DNA of 64,000 bases from Eledone cirrhosa (lineage: Eukaryota): assembly GCA_964016885.1 (NCBI GenBank), contig OZ024743.1, positions 341,434,001 to 341,498,000 on the forward strand. The letters are read 5' to 3'. Both the position numbers and the translations under genes were made by a program. The notes beneath the pieces were generated by a model. The model made no database searches, was not told the origin of the DNA, and saw only the letters and a list, made by a program, of their open reading frames with translations. This document shows positions 21,301-38,355 of the stretch, piece after piece; the first letter of the stretch is position 1; every line of letters begins with the position of its first letter.

Positions 21301-22563
21301 ATGTAAGTATGTATGTATACATACATACATATATGTATACATACGTACAGTTGCATGTATATATATATATATATATATATATATATATATATATATATAT
21401 ATATATATATATATACAGGTACACATGTATATATTACGTATCAGTTTAGCGGACGTTTATTATAACGCCCGCTTTGTCCATTTGTAAACAAACGGACAGC
21501 CTGATTTATGCCGTACGGTGTTAAGGCAACCGCGTCAGCTTTTTGTTCAACACTGACACAGGAACGATGTACTAGTTTCAAGCTTCTTAGCTATCATCAG
21601 CACCGTATACCTTTCTGCCAGATGGTTGAACGTTCGAAAGTATATACTTTCCTTAAGAAAATTAACGGCTGAGCAGCCTAATTTGCATATCGAGTGAGTT
21701 CAGTCGGCCAGGCGCACCGAAAACGATAAGTTGGAATATGATGAAACGAAATTTAATTTCTCACTCTTAGTACGGCACTTACTTAAATGTAAGTATGTAT
21801 GTATACATACATACATATATGTATACAGACGTACAGTAGCATGTATATATATATATATATATATATATATATATATATATATATATATATATATATATAT
21901 ATATATATATATATATATACATACATACAGGTACACATATATATATGTACGTACCAGTTTAGCGGACGTTTATTATAACGGACGTTTCATCCTATTCCAA
22001 CTTATCGTTTTCAGTGCGCCTGGCCGACTGAACTCACTCGATATGCAAATTAGGTTGCTCAGCCGTTAATTTTCATATGGAAAGTATATACTTTCGAACG
22101 TTCAACCATCTGGCAGAAGCGTATACGGTGCTGATCATAGCTTGAGAAGGTTGAAACTAGTACATCGTTCCTGTGTCAGTGTTGAACAAAAATGTGACGT
22201 GGTTGCCTTAACACCGTACGGCATAAATCAGGCTGTCCGTTTGTTTACAAACGGACAAAGCGGGCGTTATAATAAACGTCCGCTAAACTGATACGTACAT
22301 ATATATATGTGTACATGTATGTATATATATATATATATATATATATATATATATATATATATATATATATATATATATATATATATATATATATATATAT
22401 ATATATATATATATATATATATATATATGTATATATATATATTTATACATGCTACTGTACGTCTGTATACATATATGTATGTATGTATACATACATACTT
22501 ACATTTAATTAAGTGCCGTACTAAGAGTGAGAAATGAAATTTCGTTTAATCCTATTCCAACTT
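21301..22563. repeat. Inverted, diverged copies of the 422-bp ribozyme repeat family
   Basis: ~21420-21960 and ~21980-22560 match the 38045 array unit in opposite orientations. Octamers are at 21681 and 22043. Confidence 0.85.
21564..21606 (-). ncRNA. Minimal hammerhead ribozyme (array family); core-mutated copy at 22125-22168 on the + strand
   Basis: ACGGTG-CTGATGA-TAGCT-AAGA-AGCTT-GAAACTAGTA-CATCGT. Confidence 0.8.
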
Positions 22564-22961
22564 ATATATATATATATATTTATATATATATGTATATATA
22601 TATATAAATATATATATATATATATATATATATATATATATATATATATATATATATATATATATATATATATATACATATATATATGTATATATGCATA
22701 TATGTGTGTATATGTGTATATATATATATGTATGTGTATGTATATGTATGTATATGTATGTATATGTGAATATATACATGTATGTATATATATACATATA
22801 TATATATATATATATGCATACATATGTGTATATGTATATGTGTATATATATGTATGTATATATGTATGTATATATATATATATATATATATATATATATA
22901 TATATATATATATATATATATATATATATGTGTGTGTGTGTGTGTGTGTATGTGTGTGTGT

Positions 22962-25363
22962 AGAAAAGATGAATATAAAATAAAAATGCTTTTATAAAGG
23001 AATTTATTAGGTATTGACATATCTTTCCGGAACAGACGGAATACCTATGTATCGCTGCTTGTGTAATCATATAATATTAGCACGTAATCGATAGCAAATG
23101 TATAATCAGTTGTCACTTCTTCAGAGATATTGGATAAATTGGAAATAATCAGAAAAAATCAAAGTATTTATATTAGTCGTAAGAAAGGAAGAAGAGTGGG
23201 GAAAGTATATGACAGATGGCAACTCAATTTGCTGGTAAACAAGTGTATAGAAGGTTTTTAATGAGAATACAATATGTATATGGCTTATTTTATCTAAATA
23301 AGAACTTTTGGGAGTGCCGATTTTAATTAATATTTGACCAGTTGAACAATGAACAGGGCTGGTGGCTTGGTGTGGTCGTATTAATACAGATATAAGGTGT
23401 CAAGTAAGGAAGAGAGATTTTCACTGCTACTGTAAAACAACAATGCTGGTAGCCTGTTGGTATATGCTTTAGGGGATTAAATTGAGAAACTTATTTTATC
23501 TATAGCATTTTATATTAAATGATAAAGAATAGAAGTGTTGATAGAATTAAAACTAATAGAGATAATGTTAATATGTCTTTTGACAATCAAACGGGAATGG
23601 GGACAGGCGTTCAATCCTGGTAGCGTTTGTAATATGAAAATGTCGATTTCAAGCGATCGTTACAGTATAACGATCACTCTATTCTGTTATTTAATAAAAT
23701 ATTTTTGGATTTCATAATACAAAACATTTCAATATTACACAATGCACAACATTTCTGTCCTTGGGATTACGCCTGGGCGGATATAATTTAATCCCATTTT
23801 AGGTAAAATTGTTGGTTATTTTCGTGCAGTTGCCAGCCTTATCTGCGAGTTTTGTTACATAACGCTGGTTTTCATGGTCGACGATCACCAAAACACTCAA
23901 AATAAATCTCATAGAGGTAGAAATAGCAGAGAATCACCACCATACACACACTACCGCAATAGACACACTAATAGTCGCACACCACCAAACAGAAGGCGAT
24001 GTAAAGAGTATATATGGTAAAACCCGGTCTATAACAACTCTATTAACACCAATCGACCCTCACAATTCTTTCGATTAGTTAAAAAACATTTTCCAGCATC
24101 ACATAAATATAATAAAATCTTAAACCCTAACACTGTTCGACTTTTATATTCAACCGCCTCTAATATTGAACAACATATAAAAAAGCTTAACGCAAAAAGC
24201 TTAACGCAAAATAAATGGCTTCCAACACATAAGAAAACATCACAAAAAAACAAACAACATCCCGACATGCCTAAGCAACCTCATCAACCCATCCATGAGC
24301 ATAATTATAACTGTAACTGTGTCCAACCAGGAATGTGTCCGTTGAATAATCAATGTCTTGAAAGCAACGTCATATACACATGTACTATCGAATCGGGTCG
24401 CCAGAAGTGCTACTATGTTGAGTCTACTGCTACCTCCTTCAAATCTCGCCTTTATAGACATCGCTACTCGATAAAACATGAAAACCAGCGTTATGTAACT
24501 TGGCAGCTGCGCGAAAATAACCAACAATTTAACCTAAAATGGGATAAAATTACCGCCGCCCGGTGTATTTCCATGGACAGAAAATTTGTGGATTGTGTAA
24601 TATGGAAATGTTTTGTATTATGAAATCCAAAATATTTTATTAAATAACAGAATAGAGCGATCGTTATACTGTAACCATCGCTTAAAATCGACATTTTCAT
24701 ATTACAAACGCTACCAGGATTGAACGCCGCCTGTCTCCATTCCCTTTATTTTGTCAAAATACATATTACCATTATCTCTATTAGTTTCCATTCTATCAAC
24801 ACTTCTATTCTTTATCATTTAATATAAAATGCTATAGATAAAATAAGATTTCTCAATTCAAATCCCTAAAGCATATACCAACAAGCTACCAGCATTGTTG
24901 TTATACAGTAGCAGTGAAAATATCTCTTCCTTACCTGACACCTTAATAATACTACCACACCAAGCCACCAGTCCTGTCCATTGTTCAACTGGTCAAATAT
25001 AAATTAAAATCGGTACTCCCAAAAATTGTTATCTAGATAAAATAAGCCATATACACATTGTATTTTCATTAAAAACCTTCTATACACTGGTTTACCAGCA
25101 AATTGAATTGTCATCTGTCATATACTTTCCCCTCTTCCTTTCTTACGACTAATATAAATACTTTGATTTTTCTGATTTTTTCCAATTTATCCAATATCTC
25201 CGAAGAAGTGACAACTGATTATACATTTGCTATCGATTACGTGCTAATATTATATGATTACGCAAGCAGCGATACCTAGGTATTCCGTCTGTTACAGAAA
25301 CATATGTTAAAACCTAAAAAGTTCCTTTATAAAAGCACTTTCATTATATATTCATGTTTTCTA
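22962..25363 (+). mobile_element. Penelope-like element remnant with ~900-bp inverted arms and decayed hammerheads
   Basis: Arms are ~22962-23875 and ~24477-25363. C(T/C)GAAGA..GTGACA/TGTT(A/C)C..GAAA(C/G)ATATGT(C/T) occurs at 23011-23130(-) and 25193-25315(+). Confidence 0.8.
24040..24700 (+). pseudogene. Penelope-like thumb/linker + GIY-YIG endonuclease, decayed
   Basis: FFRLVKKHFPASHKYNKILNPNTVRLLYS, then CNC..CPLNNQCLESNVIY..YYVES T..FKSRLYRH..WQL..LKW. Confidence 0.85.
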
Positions 25364-25467
25364 CATTTTATCCAGAATATAATTTATACTCGTTGAGCAA
25401 ACCTACACGTACGCTGTTCATCGTTAATGTGACGATATATTATCACTACATTATTGATAACTTGAAA

Positions 25468-36539: not shown

Positions 36540-38020
36540 CATTCAAATATTCAAAACAAAAACAAACAACAACACCGAAACACATTCAGAAACACACACA
36601 CATATACACTAAACACACACCCTACTACCACCACTAACCCTCACCCCCACACCTCTCACCCCCACACCTCCATCCCACCACCCCGCAACTAACCTCACTA
36701 ACACACCCTAACCCCAAGCACACGAACACACGCACCCACTTACACCACCCACCCCACACGCACCTAACATCACTAACACCCCCCAACCCTACGCATACGT
36801 ACCCACAAACCCTCGTACACCACCAACTCTGCACACCCTACCACCACTAACCCCCACTCACACCTGCATTCAACCCCTCCCCACCTCCCGTATACTAACA
36901 CCCACTAACACCTCTTCATCAAACTACACACACACCAGTACACCACACTCCCTCCATAGAACCACACACACCCTTCTCTCCCCGCTCCACCCACACCCTC
37001 GCTCCACACTCACTCATCCCACTAACACCCCTACTAATACACACACACACACACACAAACCCTCCTCACTCCAACTTTCACACCTACCCATCCTCGCCCC
37101 CTTGCCATTCCACTGACTGCTGTTATGCCCTCTGACCACCTCCCAGCACTAACAGACCACAGCACTCCCACTGCTGACCACTTCCTGTTGCGCGCGCACC
37201 CCACATCTCTCCTCTTCCGACCACCGCTTCATGGATTACCCACACGCAGAAATTCACCTACAACCAATCCACTAAACATCTTTCGAATTTACCAACTTTT
37301 CAACCATCCTCTTACGTAATCACCTATATAACTCACCCACACACACACCCCAAAAAAACATTTTTCTCCACACGCCACCCACACCCACAACACGCCTAAA
37401 CCCCACACACACGTGCTTTCGACCACATATTTACACCCTCAGCCTCCTGATTCCTCTCCCCCCACCCCTCTATTCACACATGCACATACACTCCGACCCC
37501 CTCCCCATACACACCTCTTCCTGAACATGCAACCCCGTTCTTCCCCCAACCCTTACTTTCACATACACACACGCACACACACGCACACCTACACACACAC
37601 ACCACCTTCAGCCCTCCCCGCTCGGACACCCCGTCTCCCTCTCCCCACTCCATCCGCCACCACCCCTACACACCCCACATCCTTCCACCACCTGTTTACC
37701 CCCCTTTTAATTTCAGTTTATTTTGATCATGCCTTTATTTTTAAATTTATCTCCTTCCTTGTATTTTGATCATGCTTTATTTTTATTTTTATTTTTATCT
37801 TTACTTGTTATTTTTTCATTCGCACCGTTTCCTTTCGCTATATGTCTCTCCACCACTCCCCTACACACCCTTTGAACTCTGTTCCCACACACTTCTCACC
37901 TGAGGAAGGGCTTATGCCCGAAACGTCGTCCCCCACCTACACCCACTCTCCAGAGCGTGAAATTAATAAACATTTGTTGTACTGCCTCACTGTTTTGTCC
38001 CTGTTCAAATGTTTCCATTA
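36540..38020 (+). mobile_element. C/A-rich non-coding element ending in a minimal hammerhead (37895-37930) and AATAAA
   Basis: AC-CTGAGGA-AGGGC-TTAT-GCCC-GAAACGTC-GT. A related decayed 3' end lies at ~63910-63990. Confidence 0.55.
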
Positions 38021-38312
38021 TATATATATATATATATATATATATAAACGGAAAAAATGAAACGATATTTCATTTCCCACTCTTAGTACGGCTGTTACTT
38101 AAATATAAGTATGTACACGTACATACATATATGTATACCGACGTACAGTAGTATGTATATATATATATACATACATGCACACATATATATATGCACGTAT
38201 GGATTCACCGAACATTTATTATAATGCTCGGTGTGTTTGTAAACAAACATCCCGTATTAAGCCGTAGTGTCTAGCAACCACCGTTGCTCGTTTGTTCAAC
38301 ACTGACAAAGGA

Positions 38313-38355
38313 ACGCTGTACTAGTTTCAAGCTTGTTAGCTATCGTCAGCAACGT
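38313..38355 (-). ncRNA. Minimal type I hammerhead ribozyme of the array (also at 38735, 39157, 39579, 40003, 40425, 40847, 41269)
   Basis: ACGTTG-CTGACGA-TAGCT-AACA-AGCTT-GAAACTAGTA-CAGCGT gives a 6-bp stem I, palindromic ACTAGT and a GUA triplet. Confidence 0.85.

Follow-up and report, generated by a model that had tools for sequence, protein, structure and literature searches.

Non-LTR (non-long terminal repeat) retrozymes have been described from metazoans, with 126,247 hammerhead motifs given for the axolotl (PMC7229834; bioRxiv 10.64898/2026.07.22.740005). Newt satellite 2, another hammerhead tandem repeat, has an internal small nuclear RNA (snRNA)-type promoter that is reported to drive transcription by RNA polymerase (Pol) II (PMC2220036). 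Passages on Penelope-like elements (PLEs) describe inverted truncated arms, a tail at one end and a bias toward (TA)n (Craig et al., 2021, 10.1101/2021.04.23.441226), and the dimer type of hammerhead helix III has been described as well (PMC4209133). The giant squid genome paper counts 235 hammerhead matches and, in its passages on them, says nothing more. Here we consider hammerhead-bearing repeats in a 64,000-nt stretch of the Eledone cirrhosa genome (the window; GCA_964016885.1, contig OZ024743.1, positions 341,434,001 to 341,498,000, forward strand). These repeats are, with good probability, copies of a protein-free retrozyme family whose stems covary across subfamilies, whose source elements were likely selected for self-cleavage, and for which Penelope-like copying is probable. 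Judged by its sequence features, the element is of a known kind, the metazoan non-LTR retrozyme, and the family is a new member that shows the features by which this kind can be tested. No description of it was found in the literature searched, a scope outside which most supplements, subscription papers and Repbase lay.

The units of the family are non-coding, low in GC, arranged in tandem and about 420-540 bp long, with one type I hammerhead each. The open reading frame (ORF) of an autonomous PLE, encoding reverse transcriptase (RT) and a GIY-YIG endonuclease, is absent from within the units. Subfamilies A1 and A2 share 82-83% identity over whole units, and A and B share 57-62%. In a pattern search of the genome (3.0 Gb, 1,796 contigs), CTGANGA-N12-20-GAAACTAGT gives 40,595 matches against 12 for a reversed-pattern control, and 11,351 of them lack T at position 10.1. 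Copy number multiplied by unit length puts the share of the family at about 0.6% of the genome. With more than 40,000 motifs, the family nevertheless goes undetected at Rfam cut-offs: nine of its loci give no match at cut-off, and the window gives only one sub-threshold HH9 match, besides microRNA matches to TA repeats that are artefacts. The HH9 match lies in the hammerhead of a subfamily B copy (34 bits, E 8e-5, under the 52-bit cut-off). As circular monomers, six A and B units fold with minimum free energy z-scores of -7.9 to -11.4 and family C with -3.9 (40 shuffles each), values to which internal TA repeats contribute.

Related families have palindromic loop sequences other than GAAACTAGT, so the invariance that a first-pass annotation of this stretch had ascribed to that segment does not extend beyond the window. 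A pattern allowing other helix III loops matches 20,835 times (281 in the control), and most of the matches listed belong to a 310-bp family, C, which lacks the octamer described below for the A and B units. Requiring the octamer gives 2,814 hammerheads with other loops against 3 in the control and exposes the older families F, G, H, E and D. The sequences analysed were sampled from the matches listed for each search, nearly all on one contig (C1), and this sampling is partial. Family C is itself a hammerhead repeat with helix III ACGCGT and up to about 20,000 motifs, and shows the TA target and two-end pattern seen in A and B. Another hammerhead-like family, dispersed and without the octamer, has a longer helix II and an ACCGGT helix III.

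The copies in the window and their hammerheads are as follows.

38044..41551, minus strand: tandem array of 8.3 near-identical units of 422 bp, subfamily A1 retrozyme; the long 3′ end site joins (TA)n at 38044.
38313..38355, minus strand: type I hammerhead of array unit 1, with stem I ACGTTG/CAGCGT, intact core CTGACGA, helix II TAGCT-AACA-AGCTT (basal T.T) and helix III AC-TA-GT.
21298..21980, minus strand: left arm of a head-to-head A2 insertion, with its 3′ end at the short site, in (TA)n; inner limit approximate.
21564..21606, minus strand: left-arm hammerhead, with intact core CTGATGA and stem I ACGGTG/CATCGT.
21984..22565, plus strand: right arm of the A2 insertion, with its 3′ end at the long, tailed site, in (TA)n; inner limit approximate.
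22125..22168, plus strand: right-arm hammerhead, decayed, with core CTGATCA (G8 to C) and a disrupted helix II.
35430..35872, plus strand: single 5′-truncated subfamily B copy, 98% identical to the B unit and flanked by (TA)n tracts.
35603..35645, plus strand: B-copy hammerhead, with stem I ATATTG/CAATAT, helix II GTTGT-AACA-ACAAC and decayed core CGGATGA (U4 to G).

The window copies show the features of a type I hammerhead, namely CUGANGA...GAAA...UH, three helices and an open end on helix I. The segment GAAACTAGT occurs 11 times in the window in a relaxed scan (eight array units; 21579, minus strand; 22153, plus strand; 35630, plus strand), and the full motif with at least five of six stem I pairs also occurs 11 times, compared with none in 200 block shuffles. 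Within 38044-41551 lie eight consecutive intact hammerhead units, identical save one substitution and one TA indel, and cleavage of unit 1 is predicted after GUA at 38319 (minus strand). The core is intact in the array units and the 21600 copy, and broken in the 22131 and 35609 copies; the changes U4 to G (35602 copy) and G8 to C (22125 copy) hit invariant catalytic positions.

Much of what the first-pass annotation had read in these copies stands. Stem I ACGTTG/CAGCGT is seen in all eight array units (first at 38355-38313, minus strand), ACGGTG/CATCGT at 21606-21564 (minus strand) and 22125-22168 (plus strand), and position N7 varies between C and T as described. Stem I of the 35602 copy, given as AATATTG/CAATATT, is borne out as ATATTG/CAATAT at 35603-35645 (plus strand), its seventh pair being an optional extension. 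The proposed contrast between helices II, AGCT/AGCT versus GTTGT/ACAAC, holds as TAGCT/AGCTT versus GTTGT/ACAAC, but the basal pair of the array family is an unpaired T.T. The 22125 copy lacks AGCT/AGCT, its helix II reading TAGCTTGAGAAGGTT next to the CTGATCA core. The 21564 and 22125 hammerheads are not independent, since each sits in one arm of a single head-to-head insertion (15 mismatches over 301 aligned bases between the 21600 and 22131 copies). As the array units are near-identical too, the window offers three lineages (A1, A2 and B), and two of the four copies named are catalytically broken; these copies are therefore too slender a basis for the selection that had been claimed.

Covariation was assessed on copies listed in the genome searches. 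In ten subfamily consensuses, 127 of 130 stem cells are paired against a null of 82±7 (maximum 109; P=0.0005) and same-branch double changes number 17.5 against 5.7±1.8 (P=0.0005). Copies were grouped for this purpose by words outside the helices, and the basal pair of helix II, paired in three of ten consensuses, was left out. Consensuses H and G are each derived from two copies, the helix III register was set by hand in F and G, and the common descent of C with A and B is assumed rather than demonstrated in such superfamily tests. The invariance of the core across consensuses is circular because the searches required the core.

A 38-row alignment was built from 42 clusters of equal-length cores, of which 11 were dropped (three without family resemblance; eight truncated, junction or near-duplicate), with seven rows added that include four window copies; the dropping favours pairing. 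From its MAFFT alignment, RNAalifold recovers stem I with a bulge and helix II unaided, 90.7% of stem cells are paired, and double changes occur in 13 of 17 pairs. The covariation score is reached by none of 500 shuffles, a control that ignores relatedness. In a tree-aware G-test, five of the 17 proposed pairs are significant at E<0.05, and five of the six top-ranking pairs among 3,081 are structural. One of the five significant pairs is the basal position of helix II, which covaries mostly via mismatches. The 26 GAAACTAGT rows alone (A and B) yield one significant pair of 16 (E 0.032), the stem I position at which G.U and U.G are swapped, a swap already visible in the stems that the first-pass annotation quoted. 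A set filtered by upstream motif (319 matches, 92 kept, 58 representatives) shows two significant helix II pairs; its E-value for loop 3 was discarded because the search pattern forced A..T for longer loops, and the unforced test of loop 3 is the tree-aware one on the 38 rows. A search for rare subfamilies via the second helix II base gave 327 matches, mostly single-base mutants, and such mutant rows entered the alignments, which therefore carry a bias against pairing. In 37 of 38 rows, loop 3 consists of TA, AT or GC. Because a 2-nt loop cannot close intramolecularly and palindromes form self-duplexes, helix III is of the dimer type.

Inserted copies behave differently from source lineages. 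A search for A1 by flanks alone gave 7,613 matches, of which 84 distinct contexts in 67 loci were analysed. The 11 core positions carry 9 changes and 19 other positions carry 16 (p=1.0), and the rate per site is 0.0097 in the core, 0.010 outside it and 0.014 downstream. The segment GAAACTAGT, unaltered in all 11 window copies, is changed in 12 of the 84 distinct A1 copies. An intact core, which the flank search did not demand, is present in the A1 majority sequence. Because the core mutates as fast as other sites, selection likely acted on amplified source elements and not on insertions, and cleavage is, by inference, the property selected. Two levels are thereby separated, a fold conserved among source lineages and individual copies that decay neutrally, so the selection on the fold proposed in the first-pass annotation applies to the former and fails for the latter. 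Copies could instead serve the host, as regulatory RNA or in processing host transcripts, and be held by purifying selection one by one. The very high copy number would suit such a role, as would the abundance of retrozyme circular RNAs in mussel and axolotl reported in passages of PMC7229834. However, core changes in the flank-found A1 copies accumulate at the rate of other sites, and two of the three dispersed window hammerheads have broken cores, which makes this explanation very unlikely, though a small exapted subset of copies may exist.

The covariation itself might be a by-product of events at the DNA level, such as template switching or gene conversion between palindrome arms in a hairpin-rich satellite or DNA element, with the ribozyme an inherited relic that has ceased to cut. 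The units are indeed full of hairpins, the basal helix II pair is not kept, and the A and B set alone yields the single significant pair mentioned above. Yet an unpaired core separates the arms of stem I by about 31 nt, and the G.U/U.G swaps in this stem are not expected from arm-to-arm copying. Loop 2 stays AANA in families A, B and C, loop 3 is palindromic across families, the majority A1 core is intact without having been required, and the insertion ends are of Penelope type. On balance this origin is very unlikely, and selection for self-cleavage among source elements is preferred.

The retrozyme inserts into (TA)n in tandem and head-to-head, and of the two arms just one is tailed. Each family has two fixed 3′ end sites, 56-70 nt apart in A and B, which account for 47 of the 54 ends mapped; almost all of these ends adjoin TA repeats. 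In 15 of 18 head-to-head rows, the two arms use different sites, one the short and one the long. The dispersed, inverted and tandem forms noted in the first-pass annotation are thus all present, as the ordinary output of Penelope-type insertion. The same window holds a candidate source of such insertion.

24021..25472, plus strand: 3′ part of a Neptune-type PLE (thumb, Cys linker, GIY-YIG and a 3′ region ending in (TA)n).

The clade label Neptune is our presumption for this element, and we take its fragment to encode the endonuclease from motifs read in it and from PLE signatures; Pfam gives no match on this fragment. The family is abundant (150 scored matches of 53,337 candidates), and the motifs read in it give RT, Cys linker and GIY-YIG in that order. 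It likewise has two ends, about 100 nt apart (14 short and 6 long among 20 loci), which lie directly on TA repeats in 19 of the 20. Its 3′ region contains no canonical hammerhead in these loci apart from an inserted A1 copy. The inference of a partner relies on target and end pattern, with one PLE family examined. The Neptune-type element is thus a candidate mobiliser of the retrozyme, and it stays a candidate partner only, because it shares no sequence with the units. At 25190-25320 (plus strand) and at other loci, its 3′ region has a CTGAAGA and, some 90 nt away, a GAAAC-ATAT-GTC block, together a doubtful split motif with a possible helix II around a long insertion and an unconvincing stem I.

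Each unit also carries a block that resembles an snRNA promoter.

38381..38429, minus strand: putative promoter block of an array unit, one such block per unit, with octamer ATGCAAAT at 38429-38422, a proximal sequence element (PSE)-like word at 38414 and TATA at 38387.

The PSE-like word lies 15 nt past the octamer and TATA 27-28 nt further in A and B; the B copy in the window has the octamer at 35509 and TATA at 35552 (plus strand). The predicted start lies 7-33 nt upstream of the ribozyme core. In the host, the 10 distinct U1/U2 promoters compared all carry NTCA(G/A)T at -57 to -59, and nine of them a TATA-like word near -30. The octamer ATGC(A/T)AAT lies at -76 to -78 in three U6 promoters; three of the six U6 upstream types compared lack it there, one because an insertion displaces it. 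The host U1, U2 and U6 genes stand in tandem arrays, and the TCAGT word of U1 and U2, which have a TATA-like word near -30, is common to RNase P. The host U6 promoters have the octamer at -77 and lack TCAGT. Taken together, this is an unusual layout for snRNA promoters. Scored with a U1/U2 matrix, the site 15 nt past the octamer takes the top rank among 450 in 6 of 22 element copies and one of the three top ranks in 11 of 22, with a good fit in the older families F, H and G and a poor one in young A and B. The older families were found by means of the octamer; the PSE word and TATA were not used. An octamer kept solely as an arm of an RNA hairpin was considered and rejected, since its predicted partner differs between families, arguing against a purely structural cause. 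In insects, the PSE sequence and a downstream box decide the choice of polymerase, according to passages of PMC1761439.

These promoter features bear on whether the retrozyme is instead a linear element like a short interspersed element (SINE), transcribed by Pol III from a U6-type promoter, trimmed at its 5′ end by the hammerhead and stopped at T6-T7, with neither circle nor dimer. The octamer resembles host U6 promoters in sequence and in distance to the TATA region, and T6-T7 runs do occur in A units just before the long 3′ end. However, the promoter would lie outside such a transcript and is present in every tandem unit, so read-through would be needed. Furthermore, the distance from PSE to TATA, 27-28 nt in A and B, is that of most U1/U2 promoters (33 in RNase P), and a 2-nt loop 3 is unable to close within one molecule. 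A linear, SINE-like cycle is therefore quite unlikely, and read-through by Pol II is favored because of the T6-T7 runs in A units and the U1/U2-like spacing.

The retrozyme cycle would then run as follows. An internal snRNA-type promoter (octamer, PSE-like word and TATA) would start transcription before the core, probably by Pol II, and the transcript would run on into the unit that follows. Judging by structure and by homologous systems, two hammerheads in succession would pair via the palindromic helix III and cut after GUH, and the unit-length RNA released would be circularised by a host ligase. As the end patterns suggest, a Penelope-type RT and endonuclease may then prime at (TA)n and copy the RNA into insertions, tandem or head-to-head, in which one arm is tailed. 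Once inserted, copies mutate in the core as at other sites, while expanding lineages have retained pairing. More speculatively, the retrozyme may be a self-sufficient cassette for transcription and processing, with a hybrid snRNA promoter in every unit and the Neptune-type element as its retrotransposing partner; this we regard as possible, with the odds somewhat against it. Its finer points are put forward just as tentatively: a U6 octamer joined to a U1/U2-type PSE and spacing, a Pol II start at the foot of an extended stem I, and tolerance of the mismatch at the base of helix II. If the cassette were real, it would supply a named element-partner pair for the unproven retrozyme-Penelope cycle, and the promoter-like block and the shared end pattern bear on two open points, namely who transcribes and who copies retrozymes.

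Several results weigh against parts of this account. The first-pass annotation had called for significant covariation in a larger alignment, and the outcome is divided: besides the five proposed pairs given above, the tree-aware test of all 3,081 pairs yields none at E<0.05 (best E 0.33). The nulls come from in-house scripts, the tree-aware one being modelled on R-scape rather than R-scape itself. Most lineages have a mismatch at the basal helix II position, which is paired in 15 of 58 rows, and activity may be lower as a result. The G10.1-C11.1 pair typical of helix II is replaced by T.T in A and C and by A.A in F and H, with G-C in B; the axolotl ribozyme HHR_Amex2, with U.U at this base as T.T here, is active (PMC7229834). 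An excess of A-to-G changes as a trace of an RNA stage is not significant (8 vs 4, p=0.40, 63 sequences). BLAST of the units against the Neptune family finds no homology apart from one inserted copy. In three of four window copies the PSE-like word ranks 22, 28 and 35 of 450 with negative scores, and the word cannot identify the polymerase because U6 misfits the U1/U2 matrix and RNase P fits it.

The rest of the window is rich in (TA)n and retrotransposon fragments. A repeat of about 195 bp at 21082-21277 contains a long palindrome, lies between (TA)n tracts and has matches in 25 loci; it is probably another non-autonomous element that targets TA, and its sequence is not related to that of the retrozyme. 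Hammerhead-like cores at 37900-37930, 31213-31250 and 63915-63945 (all plus strand) have either an additional base following A9 or a helix I that is short, features typical of minimal PLE hammerheads, and the one at 37900 follows a 1.2-kb C/A-skewed stretch (36540-37700) that resembles a decayed PLE 3′ end. Decayed non-LTR retrotransposons lie at 177-4973 (minus strand), 5749-10328 (plus strand), 14597-17270 (minus strand) and 56718-60313 (plus strand), with an RT Pfam match at 2616-4973; one two-ORF non-LTR element ends in (ATT)n. A frequent SINE-like repeat of about 200 bp, distinct from the retrozyme, occurs at 11304-11851, 18025-18209, 32178-32367, 53018-53214, 56180-56355 and 60775-61099. 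A frame at 42355-42756 (plus strand) with a PGQRECFHLRMLL motif is presumably a fragment resembling a Helitron helicase, with no match in Pfam.

Compared with described systems, the family is like newt satellite 2 in being a hammerhead tandem repeat with a dimer-type helix III and, as a putative feature here, an internal snRNA-type promoter, according to passages of PMC2220036. The promoter proposed here is deduced from sequence and joins a U1/U2-like PSE word and TATA to a U6-like octamer; nothing suggests that the two repeats share an origin. With metazoan non-LTR retrozymes, as presented in passages of PMC7229834 and bioRxiv 10.64898/2026.07.22.740005, it shares the type I hammerhead, AT-rich non-coding tandem units, a range from monomers to multimers, a highly paired predicted circle and co-resident Penelope-like elements. 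The units of 420-540 bp exceed the 150-450 bp quoted for those retrozymes, and the passages on them describe neither the strict targeting of (TA)n and the pair of fixed 3′ ends seen here nor an internal promoter such as the one proposed. Unlike Penelope-like elements, the retrozyme has no ORF, its tail measures 56-70 nt in A and B compared with 30-40 (10.1101/2021.04.23.441226; PMC4209133), its hammerhead is canonical where theirs is minimal (PMC4209133), and it has no homology to the pseudo-LTR (pLTR) of the one PLE family examined. Despite these differences, the palindromic helix III is common to both (PMC4209133), and passages on the Neptune and Naiad clades describe the same partial tandems, inverted 5′-truncated arm, one-sided tail and preference for (TA)n (10.1101/2021.04.23.441226).

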